The notes: generated by a model not told the origin, from the letters alone. A DNA stretch of 64,000 nucleotides from an uncultured Candidatus Saccharibacteria bacterium (GCA_964478705.1 CAYZIR010000002.1:23760-87759), one strand, 5' to 3'. Counted from the stretch's first letter, positions 4,389-46,205 are shown. Translations and numbers: made by a program.

Positions 4389-6308
4389 CTACAAAATACT
4401 CTCTGGAAAAACATCAACAACGTACGACGGAGGAAGTGTACGAAGTGTCTCAACAACTCTCCGATCTGGCCATGATGTACTTGGCACACTGATGAGTGCG
4501 TGCGCGATAAACATTCCTTTTACTTTTGATATGAATGCGGGGTAAATCGTGATGGTGTAATCGGGAAGGAGGGTTTTGAGTATAGTGAGGTCAGTACGTA
4601 CAGTATCTTTGTCTCCTTTTCGAGTAATTTTGATGCATACGAAATATGGTGGATATCGAAAATCCTTTAATCGTTCTCCTTCGCCACGAACAAACGATAG
4701 TCCATCACCGCGTAGAGCATACATAAGAACCGGAAGCTCGGGCGAGCGTGTCTGTACCACTACGTGTTCACTGCTTGCTTCACGGAGCGACGTAATCAAT
4801 GAAAATGCACGCTCATGCATCCGTATATCGGGTAGTGATGTAAGCGTGTCGAGCGATGCGATAACTGATGTGCCAATGTGTGCACCGATGATGTAGGGCA
4901 AGGAGCGAGCGGTGCCAACAAGTATTCCGTTACCAGATGATTGCCACGCGGTTGCAACCTTCTCCGCTTCGGCGTGAGTTTTGATACTGTCACTCGATAT
5001 TGAAAAGAAGGGTAACGAAGGGAATTCACGCTTCACTGATGCTTCAACGGTTTCAGCACCTGCTCCGTACATGGCGAGGCGCCATCCTCCACAGACGGTG
5101 CAGAGTGTATCCGCATCTTTGGTACGTCCACATCGATGGCAGGCGAATAATCTTCCTGCACGTTCATCGTTTGTTCGTGTTGGCGATTGTCGGTGAAGTA
5201 CCATTGGTGCGTCGCACCGATCGCAGACAAGAATAGTTCCACAATCTCTACAAATGGTGAACGGGGCAAGACCTCGACGTGTTGCATAAATAAATGACAG
5301 AGAATTGGTATCAGCGCTTGTTTGTATTGCTCCGCGAGCAACTTCAGATATCACTGTAGGAGTAGCGTTTGTATCGTTTTCCGGGCGCATATCAACAATG
5401 GATACCGGCGCTCCTTCTTGGTGCATGCGAAGACGCATTGATTCATCGTAGGTGTGGTCGATTGTGTTAAGTATCGTACCTATACGAAGAAATGAGTCAG
5501 CGAATATGAGGGTTTTCCCGTATGTGCGCGCAAGAGTCTCGAAAGCCACACGAACGTCAAGAAATGGACGTGTAGCAATTTTATATGCAGGCGACGATTC
5601 GTGTTCAATGATGTATGAACGAATATCATCGCGCACCAATGAAAAACATACTGGTGTACCGACGAGTACTATAGATTCTTTTGACACAAGTGCTTTCGAC
5701 CACGTATCGCGGAACCGTTTTTTGGTGAGCGTACTCGTAATCAAAAAGCTCCGCTCTTCAATACCTCGCGATAATTGTTCGAACAGCACCTCAGCTTCTT
5801 TGATCGTAGGGGTAATAACAACGGTCGACTCGTTATTTGCTAAACCTTCCCGAATCATTACGCGGTATGATGCGTAGCGATCAGCGCGGGGCATTTGTAG
5901 TGTTTGTGGCGGATAGCGCGGGTTGTCATCTTTTTTTGTACCCAGTTTCTTTTTCTCTGCAGTGAACATGTCAGGCGATTCAAACATTGCCGAAGGCAAT
6001 AAATGTTCAAGAACTGCACCAAGAGGGGCTGCATGCATGTCAGCAATTGCTACCAGTGCCTGCATCATTCGCTCATCAAGCGAAGCATGCTTCACGACAC
6101 TGTCAATTTTTTTTGTCGCGAATGAAGCTTTGCGTAGCTCCGTTTTCAATGTCGACGCGTCTTTACTTTCGATAACCAACGCTATTGTCTTTCGAGAACG
6201 AATAGTGATTCGTACAAACGAGCCGACGGCAACAGCTTCTTTTGCGTAGTAGGAGAGAGCCTGTGGCGCAATCCCACGAAGGATTGGTACGACAGAAAGA
6301 ATGCGCAT
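4389..6308 (-). CDS. priA: primosomal protein N' (PriA helicase)
   Basis: N-terminal 3'-binding domain, helicase core and Cys-rich Zn-finger block (CRDCG...CDRC...CHRCG...CTVCG). Confidence 0.8.
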   Translation of the reverse strand: MRILSVVPILRGIAPQALSYYAKEAVAVGSFVRITIRSRKTIALVIESKDASTLKTELRKASFATKKIDSVVKHASLDERMMQALVAIADMHAAPLGAVLEHLLPSAMFESPDMFTAEKKKLGTKKDDNPRYPPQTLQMPRADRYASYRVMIREGLANNESTVVITPTIKEAEVLFEQLSRGIEERSFLITSTLTKKRFRDTWSKALVSKESIVLVGTPVCFSLVRDDIRSYIIEHESSPAYKIATRPFLDVRVAFETLARTYGKTLIFADSFLRIGTILNTIDHTYDESMRLRMHQEGAPVSIVDMRPENDTNATPTVISEVARGAIQTSADTNSLSFIYATRRGLAPFTICRDCGTILVCDRCDAPMVLHRQSPTRTNDERAGRLFACHRCGRTKDADTLCTVCGGWRLAMYGAGAETVEASVKREFPSLPFFSISSDSIKTHAEAEKVATAWQSSGNGILVGTARSLPYIIGAHIGTSVIASLDTLTSLPDIRMHERAFSLITSLREASSEHVVVQTRSPELPVLMYALRGDGLSFVRGEGERLKDFRYPPYFVCIKITRKGDKDTVRTDLTILKTLLPDYTITIYPAFISKVKGMFIAHALISVPSTSWPDRRVVETLRTLPPSYVVDVFPESIL

Positions 6309-23201: not shown

Positions 23202-24686
23202 ATGCCTACTAAACGTCACACAATTTCTCTCAGCAAGCATCTGGATTTGACTCGCAAAAAATTGGAAAAGATTGGTGTTTTTGACGCAACCCTCGGTGTT
23301 GATACGAGACTCTTTATAGATCCTAAGCTTCTCATCAGATCTAAAATTCCCGAATTTAAGACGTCACGTTATAAAATACTGAAACATTTTGCCAAGCTGA
23401 TTCGCATTCATAAGCTATCTACTAAATCTTCACAGCTTGGCGAGATTGCGCTTTCAATGCTTGCGGTTCCCGAACCTCAAGGACTTGCGATTGGGTACGG
23501 ACATACGACGGATCGAGGTGTGGCAATTTCTGAATCAATCGCAAGAAAGATACTGTTACAGCTCAGTGAAATGATGTCTGTTGGATTGCAGGATAAAGAG
23601 TTGGTCGAACTAATGGCGCTGTTTGTGAAAGGATTTGCCTCCGACAGCATCAGTGATCTGTCGGCACATATTATTTATGACGATCTGTGTAGATATACAG
23701 AGCGAATAGCTAAAAAATTAAAGGTAGAAACAACACTTTTTGATGTAGGGGATAAAAAATACCAGTTACCTAAGCACCCTTTTAAAAACTCACAGGTAAT
23801 TTTTGTTCCTCACACTCTACTCAGCCCACTTCCTGTAGCTACTTCATGGGAGGAAATAGAAGCTGCTGCTGCACACAATCGAAAACTGAGGAAAACTTTT
23901 AGTGAAATTGTTAAGCCTAGTGTATATGCTGCGATCAAAGATTTGGAACGTCTGAATCCTGAGGAACGTGAGGATTTCAAGAGCGCGATAGAGAAGCTTG
24001 TTGAAGTCTATCAGGGTATTCGGGTATCGACATATAGCCTGCGACAAGATCGAAAGGGGTATTACGGCATCCAACCGTTTGTAGACAAGGAAGAGTCCAA
24101 TTATATTCCGTCTAACCTACCGACAACTGCGGAGGAACTAATCACTTCGGTTCGAGAGATTATCACACAGTACCAAAAATCTATTGAACATAATGCTGGT
24201 AATCGACTGCTCTATCATCGAACAAAATCAGGTTCAATTTTGAAAAATAAACCCCATAACGAAGACGTCGCTCAAAATTTGTTCTTCCAACTCGCTGATC
24301 AATACTGCTCAATGGCCAATATTCTTTTGTCCAGAGAGCCTAATGCGGGTATAGGTGCTGTTGATTTTTCATTAGGAAAAGGTTACGACTCTAAAATCTT
24401 AGTCGAAATCAAAAAATCTACCAACACTGGACTAGAGAGCGGCTACAAAAAACAAATAACGGCTTACGAGAAAAGCGAGTCATCAAAGCACTCTTTTTTT
24501 GTTGTGATTATCGTAAAGGAAGGAAAAAAGAAGAAAAATGAGTACCCCCCACAACTCCAAACGGTTAAAAATCTATACGACTCAAATGTCAGCAAATCTA
24601 TCTCTACTCCAGAATTGTTTATCATTGATGGCCTGATCTATCCCTCTCCCAGTAAGCGTCGTGAGAAAAGCAATACCTTATCTTAA
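23202..24686 (+). CDS. hypothetical protein with a PD-(D/E)xK-like motif near the C-terminus; candidate restriction endonuclease
   Basis: No recognised N-terminal domain; GAVDFSL...ILVEIKK fits D...ExK; AT-rich; first gene of a four-gene operon with an MTase. Confidence 0.4.
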   Translation: MPTKRHTISLSKHLDLTRKKLEKIGVFDATLGVDTRLFIDPKLLIRSKIPEFKTSRYKILKHFAKLIRIHKLSTKSSQLGEIALSMLAVPEPQGLAIGYGHTTDRGVAISESIARKILLQLSEMMSVGLQDKELVELMALFVKGFASDSISDLSAHIIYDDLCRYTERIAKKLKVETTLFDVGDKKYQLPKHPFKNSQVIFVPHTLLSPLPVATSWEEIEAAAAHNRKLRKTFSEIVKPSVYAAIKDLERLNPEEREDFKSAIEKLVEVYQGIRVSTYSLRQDRKGYYGIQPFVDKEESNYIPSNLPTTAEELITSVREIITQYQKSIEHNAGNRLLYHRTKSGSILKNKPHNEDVAQNLFFQLADQYCSMANILLSREPNAGIGAVDFSLGKGYDSKILVEIKKSTNTGLESGYKKQITAYEKSESSKHSFFVVIIVKEGKKKKNEYPPQLQTVKNLYDSNVSKSISTPELFIIDGLIYPSPSKRREKSNTLS

Positions 24687-24719
24687 TTTTATGGCCCTGT
24701 AGTAGGGTTGGGTTCAAAT

Positions 24720-25580
24720 ATGACCCCAGAACTGCTATATTTAAGGCCTCCCATGGCCACAAAAACGCAAACAAAGAAGGTGTTAGAGTCTGTTGGCCAG
24801 AAGCCGTATTTTCATGGTGATGATTTTGCCCTCTACCACGGCGATTCAATCGAACTCCTTTCAAAACTTCCTGAAAATTCAATCGACATGATTTTTGCCG
24901 ATCCTCCGTACAATCTCTCGAACGGAGGTTTTAGTGTTCATGCTGGACGCATGGTGAGTGTCAACAAGGGTGACTGGGACAGAAGTAAGGGTTTTCAAAA
25001 CGACTATGAATTTCATGTCCGCTGGCTCGAAGCCGTTCGTAAAGTACTAAAACCAGGAGGAACATTGTGGGTGAGTGGAACATATCACTCAATTTATCAA
25101 TGTGGCCATGCCATTCAATCGCTCGGATACCACATTTTGAATGATGTTTCGTGGTTTAAGCCAAACGCTTCGCCAAACTTAAGCTGCCGCTTCTTCACTG
25201 CAAGCCACGAAACATTAATTTGGGCACGCAAAGACAAGAAGGCAAAACACACCTTCAATTACGATAAAATGAAGAATGGTGATTGGGGTAGTGATTTCAT
25301 TAAAAAACCAGGGCTACAAATGCGCTCTGTCTGGTCTGTAGGAACACCAAAGCCGGACGAAAAGAAATTTGGTAAGCACCCGACACAAAAACCACTTGAA
25401 CTTTTGCGCCGTATTGTCCTGGCAAGTACCAAAAAAGGGGATATTGTTCTTGATCCATTCACCGGTAGTTCAACCACAGGTATCGCTGCTGCAAAAGAGG
25501 GTAGGAAGTTTATTGGTATTGATATGGAAAAGAACTACCTTGATCTTTCCGTTAAAAGGTTTAATTCTATTAAAATATGA
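24720..25580 (+). CDS. beta-class N6-adenine/N4-cytosine DNA methyltransferase
   Basis: Motif IV DPPY lies before motif I (DPFTGSSTTGIAA), i.e. beta-class permutation; the ORF track starts it at TTG 24708 but the first ATG is 24720. Confidence 0.85.
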   Translation: MTPELLYLRPPMATKTQTKKVLESVGQKPYFHGDDFALYHGDSIELLSKLPENSIDMIFADPPYNLSNGGFSVHAGRMVSVNKGDWDRSKGFQNDYEFHVRWLEAVRKVLKPGGTLWVSGTYHSIYQCGHAIQSLGYHILNDVSWFKPNASPNLSCRFFTASHETLIWARKDKKAKHTFNYDKMKNGDWGSDFIKKPGLQMRSVWSVGTPKPDEKKFGKHPTQKPLELLRRIVLASTKKGDIVLDPFTGSSTTGIAAAKEGRKFIGIDMEKNYLDLSVKRFNSIKI

Positions 25581-26098
25581 AAGAAGGTGGCTTTGGGGGA
25601 GGAAACACCATAACCGGATTAAACTTTGAAAAGGAGACGGATATCCTTTCTCTTTTGGCAACAAAAGCCGGATACGAAGTCAAAGACAACGTTATTTTCT
25701 ATGAAGGAAAGGAGGTTGCAAGAAACTATCGAAAAAATGGACTTTACAAGTTTCTCGAATCAAAAGGTGTCGACTATAAGAAAATTCTTTCCAAGAAACT
25801 CCTACCGGACGATGCACTTTATGTGATTTTAAACAACACTCTTTTTGTCATCGAAGTAAAGTTCCAAAAGGTTGCAGGTTCGGTTGACGAAAAGCTTCAA
25901 ACCTGCGATTACAAACGGAAACAGTACGCAAAATTGATGGCGCCTCTTAATATCGAGGTTGAGTATATTTATATTTTGAGCGACTGGTTTCGTGCAGAGT
26001 CTTATAAAGACACTTTAGATTACATAATCTCTGTTGGTTGTCAGTATTACTTCAAATATCTTCCTCTGCAAAAATTAGGATTGCCAGTACCGAACTAA
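25577..26098 (+). CDS. small PD-ExK-like protein, putative restriction endonuclease or partner subunit
   Basis: ATGA overlap with the MTase stop (translational coupling); DD...LFVIEVKFQK fits a D-x12-ExK core. Confidence 0.35.
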   Translation: MKEGGFGGGNTITGLNFEKETDILSLLATKAGYEVKDNVIFYEGKEVARNYRKNGLYKFLESKGVDYKKILSKKLLPDDALYVILNNTLFVIEVKFQKVAGSVDEKLQTCDYKRKQYAKLMAPLNIEVEYIYILSDWFRAESYKDTLDYIISVGCQYYFKYLPLQKLGLPVPN

Positions 26099-26106
26099 TC
26101 AAAAAA

Positions 26107-27789
26107 ATGCCTACAATAAATAATTCGACCAAGAAGACTCTTTCGAGTGTATTTGATAAGACTATTTTTAATATTCCTAGATACCAACGAGCTTACTCTT
26201 GGGAGGAAAGCAATTGGCGCGAATTGTGGGACGATATTAAAAATAATGTTCTAGAAAAAGACAAGGAGCATTTTCTTGGAGCAATAATTTATTATCATGG
26301 AGATTCCGGTGGCTCTCGATACACACATTATGAGGTCATTGACGGACAACAACGCATTACCACGCTCACAATCTTAATGCGTGTTCTATATGAAAAACTG
26401 AGAGAAAACAACGTTGAAGTCTATCAGAGATTTGCTGATGAACTCTATGAAAAATATATTGGTGATATAGAAAATGAAACTTTCTTCCTTAATTTAAGTA
26501 AAAAAGATCAAGTTTTCTTTAGAGAGTTTATCCAAAAGAGCGTTCCAATTAGAAAACAGGGGAAGTTAATTTCCAACAAAAGCATAAGAAAGTGTTATGA
26601 ATTTTTTGTAAAGAAAATCGATGACATTTCAAAAGAGAGCGGCATAAAAGAAATTGAAGAATTCTGTTGGGAATTAAAAAAGAAGCTCGAAACTAATTTG
26701 GTTTTTGTCGTCATTGATGTGAATACTGATGTAGATGCATATATGATTTTTGAAAGCATCAATTCCAAAAGACAAGGACTAACAACATCCGATCTTCTTA
26801 AAAACTATATATTTTCGGCTGCTGATCAATACGAAAAGATAAAGCCTGAATCAAAAAAATTATCAATTACAGAAGACGCATGGGACAGGATGGAACAAGA
26901 GCTAGACAGAATTGAAATAAACCAATATGTTCGACACTTTTGGATATCAAACTACGGAAAGGTTTTTGAGAAAGAACTTTATCAACAAATAAAACTCAAA
27001 TTCAATAATAATAACGAGGCGATATTAAACTTCTTTGAGAACGTCGTAACCGAGTCAGAGGCTTATTCGAGCATATTTAATGCAAACATTTCCAACTTTC
27101 CACAAGATGGTCTTCATGCGCTAGAACAACTACGTCAACTAAAAAATAGACAATACTACCCTTTAATACTATCTGCTTTGTCTGGGTGGCCTTCTCAGGA
27201 AGTTTCCGATCTCATAAAACAAATAGCTTCAGTGGCAGTTAGAAGAGCGCTTATTGGCAAAAACCCAAATGAACTAGAGAATTTCTTTGCTGAAAGCGCT
27301 TCAAAACTTAGAACCAAGAATGTTACCCCCCAAGATCTCATAACGATCCTTGCTACAGACTTCTGGATTGAAGACAGCGAGATCTTGGAAGAAATTAAAG
27401 ATACAGATTTCGAAGACCAGGAATACCTTGCAAAGTTCTTACTTAAGGAATTTGAAACAAGCAGTAATCCTGCCAATGAGAAAAGTCTTGGCAAGGTATC
27501 ACTTGAACATATTTTACCTAGAAATCCTGAGAGAGTTGAGGATTGGGATATGAAAGAAGATAGACAGACCGAGCTTGTTTGGAATATTGGCAATCTTGCC
27601 TTAATTGGTCAGACTTACAATAATAAGATGTCTAATAAATCTTTTTTAAAAAAGAAACCTTGGTTTAAGAAAACAGAAATTAAAACAACAGTTATTTTGG
27701 CAGAACACGAACAGTGGACAGAGAAGGAGATCTTAGAAAGAAACGCTCAGGTTGGAAAGTTTTTGATAAGATGGTGGGCAAAAAGTTAA
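26107..27789 (+). CDS. GmrSD-family type IV (modification-dependent) restriction enzyme-like protein (DUF262 + DUF1524)
   Basis: N-terminal DUF262 hallmarks (PRYQRAYSW, DGQQRITT); C-terminal His-Me/HNH-like block (SLEHILP...NIGNLALIG..YNN). Confidence 0.8.
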   Translation: MPTINNSTKKTLSSVFDKTIFNIPRYQRAYSWEESNWRELWDDIKNNVLEKDKEHFLGAIIYYHGDSGGSRYTHYEVIDGQQRITTLTILMRVLYEKLRENNVEVYQRFADELYEKYIGDIENETFFLNLSKKDQVFFREFIQKSVPIRKQGKLISNKSIRKCYEFFVKKIDDISKESGIKEIEEFCWELKKKLETNLVFVVIDVNTDVDAYMIFESINSKRQGLTTSDLLKNYIFSAADQYEKIKPESKKLSITEDAWDRMEQELDRIEINQYVRHFWISNYGKVFEKELYQQIKLKFNNNNEAILNFFENVVTESEAYSSIFNANISNFPQDGLHALEQLRQLKNRQYYPLILSALSGWPSQEVSDLIKQIASVAVRRALIGKNPNELENFFAESASKLRTKNVTPQDLITILATDFWIEDSEILEEIKDTDFEDQEYLAKFLLKEFETSSNPANEKSLGKVSLEHILPRNPERVEDWDMKEDRQTELVWNIGNLALIGQTYNNKMSNKSFLKKKPWFKKTEIKTTVILAEHEQWTEKEILERNAQVGKFLIRWWAKS

Positions 27790-27830
27790 AATAGGACAGA
27801 CACCTTTTTGAAAAATGGTAGAATGGGTGA

Positions 27831-28472
27831 ATGTACATCACCAAAATCGGCCATTGTTGCCTCCGTATCAAGGTTAACGGAGTAACATTCCTCACCGACC
27901 CGGGAGCGTATTCAGAAGGACAGGGGAGTGTCACGGGTATTGATATCATCCTTATCACCCACGAACATGGGGATCACCTCCACATCGAGTCGCTGAAAGA
28001 GGTGTTGAAGAACAATCCGACCGCAGACGTGATTACAAATGCAGGCGTCGGAGCTAAGCTTGGTGAAGCGGGGATTCCGTACACGATTTTGCAGGGAAGA
28101 GACTCATCCGAATCTCGAGGAATCATGCTCGAAGCATTCGATGCGAAGCACGAAGAGATCTTTGAGGACTTCGGTCAGGTGCAAAACACCGGCTATTTCA
28201 TTGCAGAGAAATTCTTTTATCCCGGCGACGCATTCAAAGACCCTGAACGCCCCGTCGATATCCTCGCGCTCCCCGTTGCAGGACCATGGTGCAAAATTGC
28301 TGATGCGGTTCACTATGCCCTGAGAGTGAAGCCTCGTGTCGCATTCCCGGTCCATGATGCAGGTGTCATTGAAGAGCGCCTCGGCAGTGCTCATGGCGCT
28401 CCCGCGCATTTCCTCCCAAAGCACGGCATTGAATTTGTCACTCTCAAAGAAGGTGATTCACACGAATTTTAG
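27831..28472 (+). CDS. MBL-fold metallo-hydrolase
   Basis: HEHGDH motif. Confidence 0.8.
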   Translation: MYITKIGHCCLRIKVNGVTFLTDPGAYSEGQGSVTGIDIILITHEHGDHLHIESLKEVLKNNPTADVITNAGVGAKLGEAGIPYTILQGRDSSESRGIMLEAFDAKHEEIFEDFGQVQNTGYFIAEKFFYPGDAFKDPERPVDILALPVAGPWCKIADAVHYALRVKPRVAFPVHDAGVIEERLGSAHGAPAHFLPKHGIEFVTLKEGDSHEF

Positions 28473-36340: not shown

Positions 36341-36640
36341 GGAAGTTAGAGTGTTCTTTTGGGTTGACTAAGGCTCTATCGCGAGGAATCGGCACAGGGG
36401 GTGCTTGAGACCGCGATATACCGTGTGGCGACCATGCATGCAGTGGAGCGACGACTACCTCCGGTCTTCGGTCTCCTGTTCCATGAAGCAATCGCCCTGT
36501 CATTCCTGGTTGTTAAGACCTGGAGTGCGACGCCGAAAAAACCCATCCGGAAGTTCACTGTAACTTCCCCCATCAATGAGCGAAATAGCGAGATGTCCCC
36601 CTCGCTATCGAACTCCTCTTGGTGGGGCTTTTTTTATACA
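36341..36640 (+). ncRNA. candidate structured non-coding RNA or cis-leader of unknown class
   Basis: TGCTATTAT -10 element at 36325; about 300 nt with several hairpins (GGAAGTT-cactgt-AACTTCC, ATAGCGAG/CTCGCTAT); ends GGTGGGGCTTTTTTT; no convincing ORF. Confidence 0.3.
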
Positions 36641-36669
36641 AAACAGGCTCGCTGTGCTATATTTTTTCC

Positions 36670-38055
36670 ATGACTGAGGGCACACAGGTAACCATGGAGT
36701 CAATCATCAGCCTCGCTAAGCGACGCGGGTTTGTGTATCCCGGCTCCGAGATTTATGGCGGAATGGCTGGAATGTATGACTTTGGCCCATACGGTGTTGA
36801 ACTCTTAAACAACATCAAAAAGGCTTGGTGGGAAGAACACGTTCAAAAACGTGACAACTACGTTGGTCTTGATTCGGCGATGTTTAAGGATCCGCGTGTT
36901 TGGGAAGCGTCTGGACACACCAGCGGTTTTTCTGACCCGCTCTCTGAGTGCAAAAAGTGCAACACCCGCATCCGTGTTGATAAAGAGTTGGAAAAGATAG
37001 GCGTTACCGCTGACGAAAAAATGACCGAGGCTCAACTGAACACGCTCTTTGACGAACACAAGACAAAAATAAAGTGTCCTAAGTGTGGAGCAAATGACTT
37101 CACACCCGTCCGTGCGTTTAACCTTTTGGTAAAGACAAACATGGGCGACTTCACCGGCAAGAACGAACAGCCGGTCTACCTCCCAGGAGAAGCGTGCCAG
37201 GGAATCTATTTGAACTTCAAAAACGTCGTGGACACCACACGCGTAAAGATTCCTTTTGGTATCGCACAAATTGGTAAGGCGTTCCGCAATGAAATCTCGC
37301 CACGCAACTTCTTGTTCCGCACGCGTGAGATGGAACAAGCCGATACACAATTTTTTGTTCGCCCGAATGAAAACAAAGAAGCATACGATCGCATCAAGAA
37401 CGAACGCTTTACCTGGTATATAAAAATGGGCATCCGAGAGGAGAATTTGCGTTGGAAACAGCACGAGAACCTCGTTTTTTACGCTTCTGATGCATGGGAT
37501 ATCGAATATAACTTCCCATCCTACGGCTTTGACGAGATGGAGGGTATCCACGACCGCACCGACTACGATCTGACCCAGCATATGAAGCATTCAGGAACCG
37601 ACCTGAACTATACGGACCCGCATACCGGAGAAAAATACATTCCATGGATCTTGGAAACATCGGTCGGGCTTGGACGCATGTTCCTTGCATTCATCTCTGA
37701 CGCGTACGCGGAAGAAGGTGTTGGTGAAGAGTCTCGTACGGTTCTGAAGCTTTCTCCAAAGCTTGCACCAATTAAAGCAGCGGTTTTCCCGCTCTTGAAG
37801 AATAAACCCGAGCTCGTCGAGAAGGCTCGCGCGGTATTCGATATGTTAAAAGAACGCGTTCGATGTGAATTCGACGACAACGGTAACATCGGCAAACGCT
37901 ATCGAAGGCAGGATGAGATAGGCACACCGCTCTGCATCACGATCGACTTCGACACGCTTGAAAACGACACCGTGACCGTTCGCGATCGCGACACCATGGA
38001 GCAGGCGCGTGTCCCTATCTCTGAGCTTCTCGCACGTGTTACCCGCGACCTCTAA
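36670..38055 (+). CDS. glyQS: glycyl-tRNA synthetase (alpha2 class II, archaeal/eukaryotic-like)
   Basis: SLAKRRGFVYPGSEIYGG N-terminus; TGCTATATT -10 element 6 nt upstream of the ATG. Confidence 0.85.
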   Translation: MTEGTQVTMESIISLAKRRGFVYPGSEIYGGMAGMYDFGPYGVELLNNIKKAWWEEHVQKRDNYVGLDSAMFKDPRVWEASGHTSGFSDPLSECKKCNTRIRVDKELEKIGVTADEKMTEAQLNTLFDEHKTKIKCPKCGANDFTPVRAFNLLVKTNMGDFTGKNEQPVYLPGEACQGIYLNFKNVVDTTRVKIPFGIAQIGKAFRNEISPRNFLFRTREMEQADTQFFVRPNENKEAYDRIKNERFTWYIKMGIREENLRWKQHENLVFYASDAWDIEYNFPSYGFDEMEGIHDRTDYDLTQHMKHSGTDLNYTDPHTGEKYIPWILETSVGLGRMFLAFISDAYAEEGVGEESRTVLKLSPKLAPIKAAVFPLLKNKPELVEKARAVFDMLKERVRCEFDDNGNIGKRYRRQDEIGTPLCITIDFDTLENDTVTVRDRDTMEQARVPISELLARVTRDL

Positions 38056-38059
38056 ATAT

Positions 38060-39007
38060 ATGTCTAAAAAAATCTTACTTTCAGGAATACAGCCGAGCGG
38101 TGTTTTGCACATCGGAAACTATTTTGGTGCGATGAAGCAGTTTGTTGATATGCAGGAAGACTACGAATCCTACATTTTTATCGCCAACTATCACGCGCTC
38201 ACAACACTTCAGGATGCCGAAAAGCTCTCACAGTACACACTTGATAGCGTGATTGACCACTTGGCGGTTGGTCTCGACCCGAAGAAGGCAACAATTTTCG
38301 TCCAGTCGGATGTTCCACAGGTCACCGAGCTCACGTGGATCTTCAATACGCTCATCACCGTGCCATACATGGAACGCGCGGTCGCTTTTAAAGACAAAGT
38401 CGCGAAGGGGATTGAACCGACCATGGGACTGTTTGACTATCCGGTCTTGATGGCCGCAGATATTCTCTTACCGTTGGCGGACATCATCCCGGTTGGTCAA
38501 GATCAAAAGCAACACGTCGAATACGCACGCGATATCGCACAGAAGTTCAACAACACGTTTGGTGAGGTATTTAAAATTCCTGAAGCAAAGATTTTACCTG
38601 AAGTCGCAACGGTGCCTGGCACTGACGGACAGAAGATGAGCAAGAGCTACGGCAATACGATTCCGCTCTTCTCCACACGCGAAGAAATCACCAAAGCGGT
38701 TATGTCGATCGTGACCGACTCATCGGGCGGTATCCCGGTGAACGTCTACAACCTCCACAAGTGCTTCCGCCCTGAAAGTGAATTAAAAGAGCTCTACGAA
38801 GCTAACAAGGGAAGCTACAAGACGCTCAAAGAGGCGTTGATTGAAGATATTGATGCGTTTATCGCACCACTTCGCGAACGCCGTGCAGAGATTGCACAGG
38901 ACAAAGATGCGGTTATCGCAATGCTCAAAGAAAACGGTGAGAAAGTTCGTGCTCGCGCAGAGAAGGTGATGGATGACGTGCGAAAGAAGACGGGGTTGAA
39001 GTTCTAA
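38060..39007 (+). CDS. trpS: tryptophanyl-tRNA synthetase
   Basis: HIGN variant and KMSKS motifs. Confidence 0.9.
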   Translation: MSKKILLSGIQPSGVLHIGNYFGAMKQFVDMQEDYESYIFIANYHALTTLQDAEKLSQYTLDSVIDHLAVGLDPKKATIFVQSDVPQVTELTWIFNTLITVPYMERAVAFKDKVAKGIEPTMGLFDYPVLMAADILLPLADIIPVGQDQKQHVEYARDIAQKFNNTFGEVFKIPEAKILPEVATVPGTDGQKMSKSYGNTIPLFSTREEITKAVMSIVTDSSGGIPVNVYNLHKCFRPESELKELYEANKGSYKTLKEALIEDIDAFIAPLRERRAEIAQDKDAVIAMLKENGEKVRARAEKVMDDVRKKTGLKF

Positions 39008-39010
39008 AAG

Positions 39011-39040
39011 AAAAAGACCGCGGGGTTCCGCGGTCTCGGC
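39011..39040. terminator. bidirectional terminator
   Basis: GACCGCGG-ggtt-CCGCGGTC; A-run on its left gives a U-run for the minus gene. Confidence 0.6.
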
Positions 39041-39094
39041 GTCAGGGCGCCATCGATTCTGCTCCTGCTAGGGGCGACTGCCTCGAAACTCACA

Positions 39095-39370
39095 CTAGCG
39101 ACTCCTCAACTTCTCAAGGTTTTCTACAAAAGTTCGGAGACCCTCAATCATCTCTCCGAGAAACTTGATAGAAAAACTTTGAGTGAAAGTTGCATTGGAG
39201 TATCGAATCCAGACGAAGGTCTCACCGTCCTCATAGAACAGTGCGTCCTCGCAGAATGCGTACTCGATGATGTCCTCGGTGGTAGCCGAGTACAAATCAT
39301 CTCGCTCGAGCACCACTACTGAGCTGATATCAGCCCGAGAGGGTAGCCACTGTGGGATTTCAGAGTACAT
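39095..39370 (-). CDS. hypothetical protein
   Basis: GGAGG SD; TTGACA -35 upstream on the minus strand. Confidence 0.45.
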   Translation of the reverse strand: MYSEIPQWLPSRADISSVVVLERDDLYSATTEDIIEYAFCEDALFYEDGETFVWIRYSNATFTQSFSIKFLGEMIEGLRTFVENLEKLRSR

Positions 39371-39489
39371 ATCGTCCTCCTAGCTCGTATCGAGCCAGAG
39401 AACTAATCTGTTCGGCGTAGGCCGATACGATTCCTTTTATATCGTATCATTTAAATTATATTTGTCAATTCATAAAAAACGTGCTTCAT

Positions 39490-39745
39490 GTGATATGTTT
39501 TATGAGTAAAGACACCGACGCCGATGACACGGCCGAGTTGGGGAAAGAACCCTCGAAAGAGGTAGTAGAATCTCCCGGGGATGCCCGTAATAGCTGTAAT
39601 GAAGATCCTCCTACGCCAAGGCTTCGGAGGATGCAGTAAGGTGGTACCGCGCTTGGTCTTCCGAAGCCGTTTGAGGCGAAGGAGACACCACAATCGCCCT
39701 TACAAAAGTCACTGACTATTCGGTGGTTTTTGTAAGGGCTATTTT
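39490..39745 (+). promoter_or_regulatory. T-box riboswitch-like leader
   Basis: AGUAAGGUGGUACCGCG at 39635-39651 matches the T-box consensus; GUAAGG pairs with CCUUAC at 39688-93, which is also part of terminator stem CCCTTACAAAA/TTTTGTAAGGG + TATTTTTGTTT (39683-39750); GAC Asp codons followed by A in a 5' stem-loop. Confidence 0.5.
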
Positions 39746-39750
39746 TGTTT

Positions 39751-40059
39751 ATGAAACCAGACACAGTATCATTCATCTATCGATGGCAAATTCCACCCGA
39801 CCTTCACGAGAGCTTCTTACAACAATGGGAAGAACTCTCAAAAATAAACGTCGAGAAATATGGCCTGATAGATGCAAATCTCTATCGCATCGAACCAGAT
39901 AATTTCGTTTCAGTGACACAATGGCCTGATGAAGAAAGTTGGAAAAAATGGAAGGAAAATGATGCGAATCATGAATACCGAGAACGATGGAGACCGTATC
40001 GCATAGCAGGACCAGAACAAATGAGCAGTATTGTTAAAATAGCTAACATTAAACCATGA
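39751..40059 (+). CDS. small ABM/Dabb-like protein (putative monooxygenase fold)
   Basis: 102-aa ORF right after the T-box terminator, overlapping the aspS start by 4 nt. Confidence 0.4.
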   Translation: MKPDTVSFIYRWQIPPDLHESFLQQWEELSKINVEKYGLIDANLYRIEPDNFVSVTQWPDEESWKKWKENDANHEYRERWRPYRIAGPEQMSSIVKIANIKP

Positions 40060-41462
40060 ACCCACGCACACTCATCAAAGATCTCTCAGACCATGTTGGT
40101 AAAGAAGTATATTTTTCTGGATTCGTTCACGCGCGTCGTGACCATGGAAAAATTGTTTTCTTCGATATGCGCGACGAGACAGGGCACGTACAGACTGTTA
40201 TCTCAAGCAAAAATGAAGCTGTGTTCGCGTCAATCAACGATGTGCGCAGTGAGTGGGTACTTACGATCAAAGGTTTGGTTAAAGCGCGTCCGGAAAAGCT
40301 CGTGAACGTTGATGAGGCGAATGGTGGCATCGAGGTTGAAGCGCTTGAAGTGGAAGTGTTGAACAAAGCGAACACACCACCATTTGACCCGACAGCGGAC
40401 ACCGCAGGTATCAACGAGGAAACCCGTCTCCAGTATCGCTACATTGACCTTCGTTCGGAGCGTATGCAAAAGAATATTCGATTGCGAAGCGAGTGGGTGC
40501 GTCGCTGCCGTGACTACCTCTTCGGCGAGCGATTTGTCGAGATTGAAACACCGCTCCTCACACAATCAACGCCTGAAGGTTCACGCGACTTCATCATCCC
40601 ATCACGCCACAACCCCGGCACCTTCTACGCGCTTCCGCAGTCACCTCAGCAATACAAGCAACTCCTCATGGCATCAGGCTTCGAGCGATACTTCCAAGTC
40701 GCACGCTGTGTACGCGACGAAGACCTCCGTGCTGACCGTGGCTATGAATTCACACAAATCGACCTCGAGATGGCGTTCGTGACCAAAGAGGATGTCATGC
40801 AGACGGTTGAAGCAATGGTGACCTCTGCTGCAGAAGCGATGGGCTTCACTATCAAGGAAAAGCCATTCCCACGCATTTCATACAAAGACGCAATGGCGAA
40901 GTACGGTGCAGACAAATTCGATATGCGCACTGAAGAAGACAAAGCAAACGGCGTCCTCGCATACGCGTGGGTTGTTGATTTCCCATTCTTCGAGAAGACC
41001 GACGAAGGGAAGTGGACGTTCACCCACAATCCATTCTCGATGCCAGCTCCAGAGCACCTCGAGTGGCACATGAAGGGCGAGCATCTTGAAGACATCATCA
41101 CCCAGCAGTACGACCTAGTATGCAACGGCTTTGAGTCAGGCGGGGGAAGCATCCGTGCGCACCAGCCAGAAATCTTACGCGCTACCTACAAGAACATGGG
41201 CTACACAGACCTCGAAATTGAAGAAAGTGTCGGCCATATGCTCGAAGCGTTCGGGTATGGTGTTCCACCGCACGGCGGTATCGCGCTTGGTGTTGAGCGA
41301 AACATCATGAACCTTTCGGGAGAATCATACCTCCGTGAAGTACAGCCATTCCCGATGACCGGACGTGGCAAGACCGCAATCATGAACGCACCAACACCGG
41401 CAACACCGGAACAATTGAAAGAACTCGGCCTCTTGGTCGTGAAGAAAGAAGAGAAGAAATAA
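40056..41462 (+). CDS. aspS: aspartyl-tRNA synthetase (short archaeal-type)
   Basis: OB-fold N-terminus; class II motifs (FQVARCVRDEDLRADR, GGGSIRAH). Confidence 0.9.
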   Translation: MNPRTLIKDLSDHVGKEVYFSGFVHARRDHGKIVFFDMRDETGHVQTVISSKNEAVFASINDVRSEWVLTIKGLVKARPEKLVNVDEANGGIEVEALEVEVLNKANTPPFDPTADTAGINEETRLQYRYIDLRSERMQKNIRLRSEWVRRCRDYLFGERFVEIETPLLTQSTPEGSRDFIIPSRHNPGTFYALPQSPQQYKQLLMASGFERYFQVARCVRDEDLRADRGYEFTQIDLEMAFVTKEDVMQTVEAMVTSAAEAMGFTIKEKPFPRISYKDAMAKYGADKFDMRTEEDKANGVLAYAWVVDFPFFEKTDEGKWTFTHNPFSMPAPEHLEWHMKGEHLEDIITQQYDLVCNGFESGGGSIRAHQPEILRATYKNMGYTDLEIEESVGHMLEAFGYGVPPHGGIALGVERNIMNLSGESYLREVQPFPMTGRGKTAIMNAPTPATPEQLKELGLLVVKKEEKK

Positions 41463-43992: not shown

Positions 43993-44013
43993 AGTGCTAC
44001 ACTACTCATATCT

Positions 44014-45078
44014 ATGGAGCTGGATATCGTTAAAGTCATCGCACCGGCAACAGTCTCGTTTATTGTTGGTATTGGCATAACGCCACTCGTTACACACTAT
44101 CTCTACAAATACCGAGCATGGAAAAAACGTGCGGGAAACACGAAGGGGGTCGGTGATATCGAAGGGGTATCAGGGACGCCAATTTTTAACGAATTGCACA
44201 AAGATAAAGAAGTTGGGACGCCACGTATGGGAGGGCTGGTGGTGGTTATCGCTGTCACCGTCACTATTGCGCTCTTTTGGTTGATATCGTTTATCACATC
44301 GGGCGGTCCATCAGGAAAAATCGACTTCCTTTCCCGCGCTCAAACATGGCTTCCATTCGCCGGCTTTATTCTTGGCGCAATTGTTGGCTTCATTGAAGAT
44401 CTTGTGGTCATTGGTGTCTCACGACGTTTTCCTGACGGTCTACCATTTTCATATCGTGCCGCACCGATACTTCTTTTTGGTGTTTTTGTTGCATGGTGGT
44501 TTTATGCAAAGCTCGGCATGACAGCCGTTTTCGTCCCATTGTATGGTTTTTTTGATCTCGGCATCTGGTTTATTCCGTTCTTTCTTTTTGTTCTTCTCTC
44601 AATTCTTGCATCTGGCGTCATCGACGGTATCGACGGTCTTGCGGGTGGTGTACTTGCGATTGTATTTTCTGCGATTGGTATCATTGCGTTTTTTGGAGCA
44701 CACATCGATGCATCAGCGTTTTCGTTTGTAATCGCTGGAGGACTTCTCGCATTCTTATGGTTCAATATTCCGCCCGCTCGCTTCTATCTGACCGAAACAG
44801 GATTCATTGCGCTTGCTCTTGCACTCACTATTCTTGCGTTTTTAACTGATACAGTCGTTCTCCTTCCAATTATTGCATTCATCCAATTCATCACTGTCGT
44901 CACCAACGTACTCCAGGTTGCATCGAAAAAACTCCGCGGAAAAAAGATATTCCGTATCGCACCAATTCATCACCATTTTGAAGCTATCGGTTGGCCTTCC
45001 TACAAAGTTGTAATGCGCTATTGGGTCATCTCAGTCATCTGCGCATTCATCGGTGTTATTATTGCGCTCGTCGGGTGA
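44014..45078 (+). CDS. mraY: phospho-N-acetylmuramoyl-pentapeptide transferase
   Basis: Ten-TM polyprenyl-phosphate transferase with a DGIDGLAGG motif; TGCTACACT 10 nt upstream. Confidence 0.85.
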   Translation: MELDIVKVIAPATVSFIVGIGITPLVTHYLYKYRAWKKRAGNTKGVGDIEGVSGTPIFNELHKDKEVGTPRMGGLVVVIAVTVTIALFWLISFITSGGPSGKIDFLSRAQTWLPFAGFILGAIVGFIEDLVVIGVSRRFPDGLPFSYRAAPILLFGVFVAWWFYAKLGMTAVFVPLYGFFDLGIWFIPFFLFVLLSILASGVIDGIDGLAGGVLAIVFSAIGIIAFFGAHIDASAFSFVIAGGLLAFLWFNIPPARFYLTETGFIALALALTILAFLTDTVVLLPIIAFIQFITVVTNVLQVASKKLRGKKIFRIAPIHHHFEAIGWPSYKVVMRYWVISVICAFIGVIIALVG

Positions 45079-45092
45079 TTGCCTCCTGTTCT

Positions 45093-46205
45093 ATGCGAAA
45101 AAAAATCGATTCTGTCTTTCTCACCATTACACTCTTGCTCACCGGTGTCGGTTTTTTCATTTTTATCTCAGCACTCCTAGGACTCCTTGCGCGTGAAGGG
45201 GGACGATTCTCAGGACTTGCCATCAACCAAGGGCTTTCACTTCTTATCGGACTCGTGCTTTTGTACGCCATGTACCGCATCAAATACACGGTATGGAATA
45301 GATATGCGTTTTATGTTTTTCTTGGAAGCGTCTTGGCGTGTGCGCTCGTCTTCATCCCTTTTTTCGGCTTTGAGCATGGTGGCGCTCGTCGATGGATTGT
45401 TGTCGGAGGGTTTTCATTTCAACCTGCTGAACTTTTGAAATTTGGTTTCGTGCTTTACCTTGCGGCGTGGTATGCGATGGTCAAAACAAAAATTGCGACA
45501 TGGGTGTACGGCATAGGGCCACTCGCAGGACTTCTCGGAATTTCGCTCGTCATGCTCGCTCTGCAACCTGACTTTGGAACAGCTATCATTCTCTCGATTA
45601 CTGGGCTCGTTATGTACTTTGTCGCTGGAGGTGGATGGAAGCATACCGGAGCAATCATTGGTGCAGGATTACTCTTTGTCACACTTCTTGGACTATTCGT
45701 GCCATACATCAAAGACCGCGTGCTTACCTTCGCTGACCCCTCTCGTGATCCACAAGGCGCAGGCTATCAAATCCAACAGTCACTGATTGCAATCGGTTCG
45801 GGCGAAATCGCTGGTAGGGGATTCGGCCAGAGTATTCAGAAATTCAATTTTCTTCCTGAGCCGATTGGTGACTCGATTTTTGCGGTCTTCGCCGAAGAGT
45901 GGGGATTTATTGGAAGCGCCCTCTTGATTGCACTCTTTCTCTCGTTTCTTTTGCGAGGGTATAGAATTGCCCAAGAAGCGCCCAATCAGTTTTCACGCTT
46001 AGTGGTGATTGGTTTTGTTACCATGATTGTCACGCAATCATTCGTGAACATTGCATCAATGCTTGGCATCTTTCCTTTGACAGGGGATCCATTGGTATTC
46101 GTCAGTCAGGGAGGATCATCGCTCATCATGGCGCTCACCGCCTCTGGCATCATTCTTAATATTTCAGGATATACCAAATCTCCAGATCCATTTACTGCAA
46201 GATAA
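45093..46205 (+). CDS. ftsW: SEDS-family peptidoglycan polymerase (FtsW/RodA)
   Basis: Multi-TM protein with SEDS conserved blocks; start trimmed to the ATG after the mraY stop. Confidence 0.8.
   Translation: MRKKIDSVFLTITLLLTGVGFFIFISALLGLLAREGGRFSGLAINQGLSLLIGLVLLYAMYRIKYTVWNRYAFYVFLGSVLACALVFIPFFGFEHGGARRWIVVGGFSFQPAELLKFGFVLYLAAWYAMVKTKIATWVYGIGPLAGLLGISLVMLALQPDFGTAIILSITGLVMYFVAGGGWKHTGAIIGAGLLFVTLLGLFVPYIKDRVLTFADPSRDPQGAGYQIQQSLIAIGSGEIAGRGFGQSIQKFNFLPEPIGDSIFAVFAEEWGFIGSALLIALFLSFLLRGYRIAQEAPNQFSRLVVIGFVTMIVTQSFVNIASMLGIFPLTGDPLVFVSQGGSSLIMALTASGIILNISGYTKSPDPFTAR

Follow-up and report, generated by a model that had tools for sequence, protein, structure and literature searches.

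A predicted T-box leader with an ultrashort Stem I and an intrinsic terminator upstream of aspS in a CPR/Patescibacteria-type genome

The stretch of DNA analysed here (64,000 nucleotides, hereafter the window) raises the question of whether the region preceding its aspartyl-tRNA synthetase gene (aspS) encodes a T-box riboswitch, as had been proposed in a sequence-only reading. The Rfam gathering search returned no family at threshold anywhere in the window, and none of 13 related loci passed either. The above-threshold match to RF00230 that might have settled the matter was not obtained, the leader scoring 20.3 bits in a permissive search against a gathering threshold of 93. No cis-regulatory Rfam family other than RF00230 matched the leader on its + strand. 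The RF00230 alignment put the T-box core, the K-turn, Stem III, the IIA hairpin and the GAA/AGUA of Stem II in the right places, while reducing 72 Stem I model positions to 2 nt and leaving a large insert in the antiterminator loop. The low score is explained by an ultrashort Stem I that carries the specifier in its terminal loop.

The evidence presented below leads us to regard the region 39512-39750 as very probably a T-box responding to uncharged tRNA-Asp, by which read-through of transcription into the following operon is controlled. The leader and its predicted targets are located as follows.

39512-39750, + strand: predicted T-box leader, ahead of the ABM-ORF/aspS operon
39751-40059 and 40056-41462, + strand: putatively regulated operon, ABM-domain ORF and AspRS, the two genes overlapping as ATGA

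The small ORF and aspS, already named as targets, were both confirmed. The ORF starts with the ATG at 39751, encodes 102-104 aa and matches the ABM domain (Pfam PF03992, E=1e-7). Its stop overlaps the start of a bacterial-type AspRS of 468 aa (40056-41462), which scores 578.8 bits against NCBIfam NF001750 (aspartate--tRNA ligase) in a match split over two stretches; this appears to reflect an AspRS without the bacterial insertion domain. The genes for ProRS and TrpRS lie on the same strand before the leader and AspRS, three aminoacyl-tRNA synthetase genes thus spanning 36619-41462, and scans of the 64-kb window with Rfam, the T-box motif and the covariance model R1 described below found no such leader at the ProRS and TrpRS genes, leaving the T-box to aspS only. 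Three ORFs lying over the leader (39486-39776 and 39451-39693 on the - strand, 39481-39639 on the + strand) were rejected as genes, with no Pfam support.

Genome and metagenome scans seeded with AspRS returned relatives exclusively from CPR/Patescibacteria, mostly Parcubacteria, Paceibacteria or Kaiserbacteria-like; identities in these scans did not exceed 71%, and closer relatives came only from a large protein database. The best match, 91% identical, is assigned by NCBI to a Candidatus Parcubacteria bacterium and, judged by its AspRS, the window comes from an ultra-small bacterium of the CPR/Parcubacteria type. The same leader occurs in the closest relatives, which have an AspRS identity of 85-91% and are syntenic, with the gene order ProRS-TrpRS-x-leader-AspRS-ScpA-ScpB. 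The slot between leader and aspS, occupied by the ABM-domain protein in the window (39751-40059), holds an asparaginase-like protein in one relative (L069:5453-5965) and a DUF3850/ASCH protein in another (L165:2727-2999), and is empty in L161, a pattern suggestive of a hot spot for gene insertion under T-box control. Elsewhere in the window, the composition profile shows a dip in G+C to 0.36-0.41 at 24001-28000, against ~0.47 in the remainder, a segment that could be foreign or otherwise unusual, and a pronounced negative AT skew of -0.233 restricted to a single 2-kb bin (44001-46000).

The 3' half of the leader presents every feature of a T-box discriminator: the core, the UGGN-ACC bulge, helices A1 and A2, shared 3' strands, and a terminator with its U-tract.

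39636-39703, + strand: antiterminator; helix A1 pairs GUAAGG (39636-41) with CCUUAC (39698-703), 6 bp
39642-48, + strand: T-box bulge UGGUACC, 7 nt, of the UGGN-ACC type, between A1 and A2
39649-51 with 39695-97, + strand: helix A2, GCG with CGC, 3 bp
39696-39750, + strand: intrinsic terminator; 20-bp hairpin at 39696-39739 (-28.3 kcal/mol), whose 5' arm holds the 3' strands of A2 and A1
39742-50, + strand: U-tract UUUUUGUUU, separated from the terminator hairpin by UA

The sequence AAGGUGGUACCGCG at 39638-39651 (+) matches the conserved T-box sequence AGGGUGGNACCGCG at 13 of 14 positions. The 12/12 core match reported initially, GGTGGTACCGCG at 39640-39651 (+), is present and is the sole exact copy in the window; allowing one mismatch yields three matches, against 0.61 expected. 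GUAAGG and CCUUAC likewise exist and pair, but with a gap of 56 nt and not the ~40 nt first given. The proposed terminator stem CCCTTACAAAA/TTTTGTAAGGG with its U-tract turned out to be part of the 20-bp hairpin at 39696-39739, which contains it and is followed by TATTTTTGTTT / UAUUUUUGUUU. The mutually exclusive design of antiterminator and terminator was also upheld, since the two share a strand (39696-39703 of the antiterminator 3' strand, 39695-39703, lies in the terminator arm) and A1 and A2 covary.

This organisation is not peculiar to the window. All 20 parsed leaders have A1, a UGGNACC bulge and A2, and in all of them the antiterminator 3' strand lies within the terminator 5' arm; the U-tract is weak in L082 and L087. 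When 24 leaders were aligned with MAFFT, blind to structure (alignment A1), the two antiterminator helices paired in 90.1% of cells, compared with 39-50% when slid, and compensatory changes were observed in 10 of 11 pairs, with none of 500 shuffles reaching the score.

The comparison was extended to the whole leader with a covariance model of 150 positions, R1, constructed from six CPR relatives and leaving the window out. Six clean rows were used as its seed; in the MAFFT alignment A4, L092 and L082 had been wrongly aligned in their 5' halves. R1 matched 39510-39706 end to end (positions 1-150 of 150) with 91.8 bits and E=3e-24, all modelled pairs being canonical, and had no other match in the 64 kb. 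The six helices, examined over 24 aspS leaders in a model-guided alignment, paired in 92.8% of cells against 38-49% when slid, and 19 of their 21 pairs showed compensatory changes (0/500 shuffles); this alignment leans towards the model, and the MAFFT-based counts agree with it. The comparative evidence hence bears out the T-box reading. It also refutes, in our estimation, the notion that an ordinary terminator or structured spacer merely happens to contain a T-box-like 12-mer. That notion would fit the negative Rfam gathering search and the weak evidential value of a lone 12-mer, but is incompatible with the full-length R1 match at E=3e-24, with covariation in six helices and with a codon that fits the downstream gene in 19/19 of the leaders anchored on it.

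Scans by motif, structure descriptor and covariance model located T-box-like leaders directly upstream of aspS in ~30 of 165 CPR loci (designated by L numbers), and the putative leader of the window is thus one of ~30 similar aspS leaders and not an isolated case. The structure-descriptor scan gave 44 matches in real and 7 in shuffled DNA; in view of this ratio, and of several matches being intragenic, only matches upstream of aspS were used. R1 matches with E<0.01 were all upstream of, and co-oriented with, aspS, except for one weak intragenic match in L102. Motif matches in L016 and L032 were discarded as leaders, since they look like coding sequence.

The 5' half of the leader presents the elements expected at the decoding end of a T-box, in an unusually compact form.

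39512-39538, + strand: ultrashort Stem I with K-turn, AC/ACC/GA/C/GCCG-AUGACA-CGGC/C/GA/GU
39512-13 with 39537-38, + strand: K-turn C-stem, AC with GU; bulge ACC at 39514-16
39517-18 and 39535-36, + strand: tandem G.A of the K-turn, GA and GA
39520-23 with 39530-33, + strand: 4-bp helix of Stem I, GCCG/CGGC, closed by the loop AUGACA (39524-29)
39526-39529, + strand: predicted specifier GAC (Asp) and purine A, in the terminal loop of Stem I
39540-39575, + strand: Stem II, with basal helix GGGGA/UCUCC and distal hairpin CCCUC-GAAA-GAGG (39550-39562)
within Stem II, + strand: S-turn (loop E), 5' strand GAA and 3' strand AGUA-GAA
39576-87, + strand: Stem IIA hairpin CGGGGAUGCCCG, CGG-loop-CCCG, 96.1% paired, with compensatory changes
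to 39604, + strand: linker UAAUAGCUGUAAUGAAG, F-box-like CCCGUAAUAGC and purine stretch AAUGAAG
39605-39632, + strand: Stem III, AUCCUCC - UACGCCAAGGCUUC - GGAGGAU, 7 bp with a 14-nt loop, extendable as an irregular helix

Relatives anchored on the codon share a K-turn with a 2-bp C-stem, a 3-nt bulge and a tandem G.A, followed by a 4-bp helix. The C-stem paired in 97.7% and Stem I in 94.7% of cells in the model-guided alignment A6, with compensatory changes at every pair, and the C-stem covaries as CG, GC, UA and AU; the presence of the K-turn/GA motif at the base of Stem I is judged from the sequence. The elbow platform of canonical T-boxes (distal bulge and loop, interdigitated T-loops) is missing: Stem I closes with the 6-nt AUGACA, and the same holds for the relatives.

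GACA had been put forward as the possible specifier. Two copies occur, at 39511 and 39526, and only the second lies in the conserved loop of Stem I, where it reads GAC-A. The loop measures 6-7 nt in the relatives and takes the form YU-GAC-A or YU-AAC-A; among 19 codon-anchored leaders, the codon is GAC in 15 and AAC in 4, the following base is a purine in all (A in 18, G in one) and U precedes in 18. The specifier ends in C, as in known T-boxes (PMC7778990). The AAC (Asn) specifiers ahead of aspS (L001:5797-5802, L060:205-210, L153:~3780 and L156:~3657) suggest that in those loci AspRS expression tracks tRNA-Asn charging, as expected of a non-discriminating AspRS. Such a specifier would make sense if AspRS also charges tRNA-Asn, which it does in bacteria without AsnRS (PMC2494555).

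Conservation of the Stem II pattern GGGRAAGAA...AGUAGAA is evident in alignments A3 and A5, the Rfam T-box alignment puts its GAA/AGUA at the same place, and the basal helix of Stem II is 78.7% paired. The IIA/B pseudoknot is possible in the window with 2 bp only (GC/GC), whereas relatives show 4-5 covarying bp (UACGC/GCGUA, UGAGC/GCUCA, UUUGC/GCAAA; A3, judged by eye). Stem III folds alone with -12.2 kcal/mol; it recurs at the same position with other sequence in L163 and L165 and is absent from L161 and many other relatives.

The loop of Stem III, U[UA]CGCCAAGGCU[AU]C, was considered as a repeated or mobile module and rejected as such, matches with up to 2 mismatches being found only in the leaders of the window, L045 and L037; of the look-alikes, that in L091 is a gene-end hairpin without a T-box, and the others fall in coding sequence. 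The L045 leader (L045:1-204) contains near-identical hairpins as distal Stem II and Stem III, CCCUGC-UUCGCNNNAGGCUAC-GCAGG, with a Stem III loop that almost equals the UACGCCAAGGCUUC of the window. We keep the likeness between the window and L045 as probable shared ancestry, and not as a general element; hairpin duplication seems to recur within leaders of the CPR aspS class.

Several relatives are reduced further. The leaders at L051:778-906 and L040:5839-5977, and also those of L064, L087, L102 and L037, lack Stem II, IIA/B and the elbow platform, and pass from the K-turn and specifier hairpin through a 13-30-nt linker, or just Stem III, to the antiterminator and terminator. The sensing domain of L051 has neither Stem II nor Stem III and measures ~89 nt from the K-turn to A1; we know of no natural T-box that is smaller. 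Dojkabacteria-type leaders (L030:5810-5958, L031:5834-5977), also under the Rfam threshold, have a longer Stem I with AGUAG-UGACAU, which resembles the canonical internal specifier loop, and may link the canonical and ultrashort forms.

Folding supported the predicted switch: the leader folds far better than its shuffles (z=-5.2). Over the full leader, the terminator state has -98.8 kcal/mol and the state with the antiterminator enforced -76.9, the terminator being favoured by ~22 kcal/mol. Uncharged tRNA-Asp sensed by the leader would thus permit read-through into the ABM ORF and aspS; with charged tRNA no such switch would take place, the terminator would form and transcription would stop ahead of the ABM ORF. 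The bulge reads UGGU in the window and UGGC in 21 of 24 relatives, UGGU recurring in L060 and L048; it would call for A73 in the tRNA or, with G73 as the discriminator base, for a G.U wobble. Searches for tRNAs came back empty for the window, and among 160 loci they yielded none for Asp or Asn. No sigma-70-like promoter on the + strand upstream of the window's leader passed the promoter scan. L069 has a consensus promoter (TTGACA, 17 nt, TATAAT) ~10 nt before the K-turn, which places the element at the very start of the transcript.

The hairpin at 39696-39739 might instead, or in addition, mask the ribosome-binding site of the ABM ORF, providing translational or dual control as in actinobacterial short-Stem-I T-boxes. 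Its 3' arm includes an AAGGG (39733-37) that precedes the ATG at 39751 by 13 nt, the same arm in L069 carries GAGGG (~5426-5440) 7 nt before the ATG, and to date ultrashort Stem I elements have been linked with translational T-boxes (PMC7583486, PMC11297988). On the other hand, the window and 18 of 20 parsed leaders have 5 or more U within 9 nt after the hairpin, the start codon in relatives lies mostly 30-100 nt past the U-tract with a Shine-Dalgarno of its own (AAGGAGG in L105, for instance), and a spacing of 13 nt is long for a ribosome-binding site. We consider this explanation quite unlikely; a secondary translational effect via the AAGGG in the terminator 3' arm is possible.

The antiterminator of the window is further distinguished by a long insert in the loop of A2, and by an alternative pairing in which this insert takes part.

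39652-39694, + strand: A2-loop insert of 43 nt, stem-Sa-like, hairpin UGGU-C-UUCC-GAA-GCC-GUUUGA-GGC-GAA-GGAG-AC-ACCA
39608-39684, + strand: alternative clamp around the T-box core, pairing 39620-32 with 39656-68 (13 bp) and 39608-17 with 39675-84, ~22 bp

The A2 loops of other parsed leaders have 3-30 nt, compared with 43 nt in the window. The insert repeats the Stem III hairpin of the window in inverted form, agreeing at 22 of 24 aligned bases. It folds locally with -14.0 kcal/mol and covaries in L163 (CGCU-GAA-GUCC-AAAA-GGAC-GGA-AGCG) and L165 (CGCC-GAA-ACCC-AACA-GGGU-GGA-GGCG). An extra 9-bp helix bracketing the T-box motif had been noticed before, GGCTTCGGA/TCCGAAGCC (GGCUUCGGA, UCCGAAGCC; 39620-39628 and 39660-39668). 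The helix is real, but comprises 13 bp, or ~22 bp when extended, and does not amount to an extra T-box element; it arises when Stem III pairs with the A2 insert instead of folding locally, a pairing that the closest relatives do not conserve. Neither Stem III nor the insert hairpin nor the antiterminator can form alongside the clamp, which would favour the OFF state.

Whether this clamp is a functional part of the switch was weighed on thermodynamic and comparative grounds. If it acted as an anti-antiterminator, the leader would be a three-state T-box in which Stem III pairs with the insert during transcription, concealing the T-box core and imposing a high threshold, and read-through would depend on early docking of uncharged tRNA. 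The folding results are consistent with such a role, the clamp being the minimum-energy fold once 39668 is transcribed and, up to 39706, reaching -69.3 kcal/mol against -59.8 for the antiterminator, an advantage of ~9.5 kcal/mol before the terminator is made. Furthermore, a 13-bp run is rare in shuffles of the leader (14/2000 and 2/300). Stem III and the insert also co-occur (window, L163/L164, L165) or are both missing (L161/L162) among the closest relatives, despite the T-box core between them, as seen across the spans compared (L161:2802-2990, L163:2878-3160, L165:2395-2640 and 39605-39694 of the window), which suggests either that the two were gained or lost together or that they interact functionally. 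In particular, L161, with 91% AspRS identity, has the same leader without Stem III and without the insert, and L163 (90%) and L165 (85%) have both.

Conservation argues the other way. The longest helix between Stem III and the insert has 7 bp in L163 and 6 bp in L165, both of which keep the local hairpins in their pre-terminator minimum-energy fold, L161 has neither element, and covariation supports each local hairpin. Among leaders with a long A2 loop, complementarity of this kind is confined to the window, and the clamp can be taken as specific to this genome because the relatives conserve the two hairpins and not the clamp. We hence regard the three-state arrangement as unlikely, and the clamp as most likely a lineage-specific by-product or fine-tuning feature, and not a conserved part of the switch.

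The UGGU bulge, the 2-bp pseudoknot and the absent elbow platform could count against the T-box reading, and the clamp could blunt induction. The first two of these, together with a clamp that outcompetes the antiterminator, might also be taken as signs of decay, the leader being T-box-derived with its tRNA response lost and the hairpin serving as a constitutive partial terminator. Such a relic, however, would hardly retain all modelled helices intact with canonical pairs (91.8 bits) and unmutated specifier, K-turn and S-turn motifs; UGGU, not the class-typical UGGC, is found also in L060 and L048, and a 20-bp terminator without an escape route would be costly ahead of an essential gene such as aspS. 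A decayed element is in our view very improbable, and a T-box responding to uncharged tRNA-Asp remains the preferred interpretation.

Novelty was assessed against the literature, in which no paper joining T-boxes with CPR or Patescibacteria was found, the coverage being incomplete and the result an absence of evidence only. What is new is an ultrashort Stem I joined to an intrinsic terminator, the former having been known from translational actinobacterial ileS T-boxes; there is no experimental precedent for a terminator-coupled ultrashort Stem I. The broader proposal, that CPR/Patescibacteria harbour a widespread, undescribed T-box subclass combining the two, to which the window adds an anti-antiterminator third state, is put forward tentatively, as plausible but short of probable. 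If true, some members (L051, with ~89 nt) would contain the smallest natural tRNA-sensing domains, and the class would embody a combination of ultrashort Stem I and terminator that is held to be kinetically disfavoured. T-boxes are a model system for RNA-RNA recognition, and leaders with a short Stem I and a strong terminator, detected at about one fifth of the CPR aspS loci examined, would provide natural tests of the elbow-platform rule as well as much smaller scaffolds for engineering tRNA sensors. They would also mean that genome-reduced, host-dependent CPR bacteria keep a predicted tRNA-charging feedback on at least one essential synthetase. The Rfam and TBDB pipelines miss this CPR aspS class, which the RF00230 threshold excludes, and the TBDB short-stem model has been applied only to Actinobacteria and to sequences found with RF00230 (PMC7778990). 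Models of the R1 type are usable for annotating CPR aspS leaders.

Compared with canonical transcriptional T-boxes (RF00230, such as Bacillus tyrS and Firmicute aspS), the leader of the window shares the T-box core, the UGGNACC bulge and the mutually exclusive terminator with U-tract, and also the basal K-turn, a specifier and purine that fit the synthetase, the Stem II S-turn, IIA, Stem III and the aspS target. It differs in a Stem I that ends at the specifier, with a 6-7-nt terminal loop and no elbow platform, in a CPR/Patescibacteria and not Firmicutes host, and in a score of 20 bits against a threshold of 93. Transcriptional T-boxes are held generally to need the Stem I elbow platform for sufficiently fast binding, a short Stem I being tolerated only in translational ones (PMC7583486). 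The glyQS-type minimal T-boxes resemble L051, L040, L064, L087 and L102 in doing without Stem II and IIA/B, but glyQS keeps a long Stem I with an elbow platform, both of which the minimal CPR relatives lack, whereas the window keeps Stem II.

The A2 insert finds its closest counterpart in stem Sa of staphylococcal glyS T-boxes, a lineage-specific 25-50-nt hairpin inserted in A2 (PMC9177973). The 43-nt insert of the window occupies the same position, and its hairpin is conserved in L163 and L165. The likeness is one of position: unlike stem Sa, the insert repeats Stem III of the same leader in inverted form, and the two can pair.

Actinobacterial ileS T-boxes with an intermediate or 'ultrashort' Stem I were reportedly described by Sherwood et al. 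in 2015, and structures of Mycobacterium and Nocardia ileS T-boxes exist. Compared by description, these elements are like the leader of the window in joining a short Stem I without elbow platform to a Stem II S-turn and IIA/B elements, with the IIA/B pseudoknot only a possible one in the window. In such T-boxes Stems II and IIA/B make up at the anticodon for the shortness of Stem I; the T-box core and the role of UGGN are likewise documented (PMC11297988, PMC7583486). The actinobacterial elements are Ile-specific and translational, with a Shine-Dalgarno sequestrator and no terminator; the window, in contrast, has a 20-bp hairpin and U-tract in place of the class II sequestrator, combined with a predicted Asp specifier in a CPR host.
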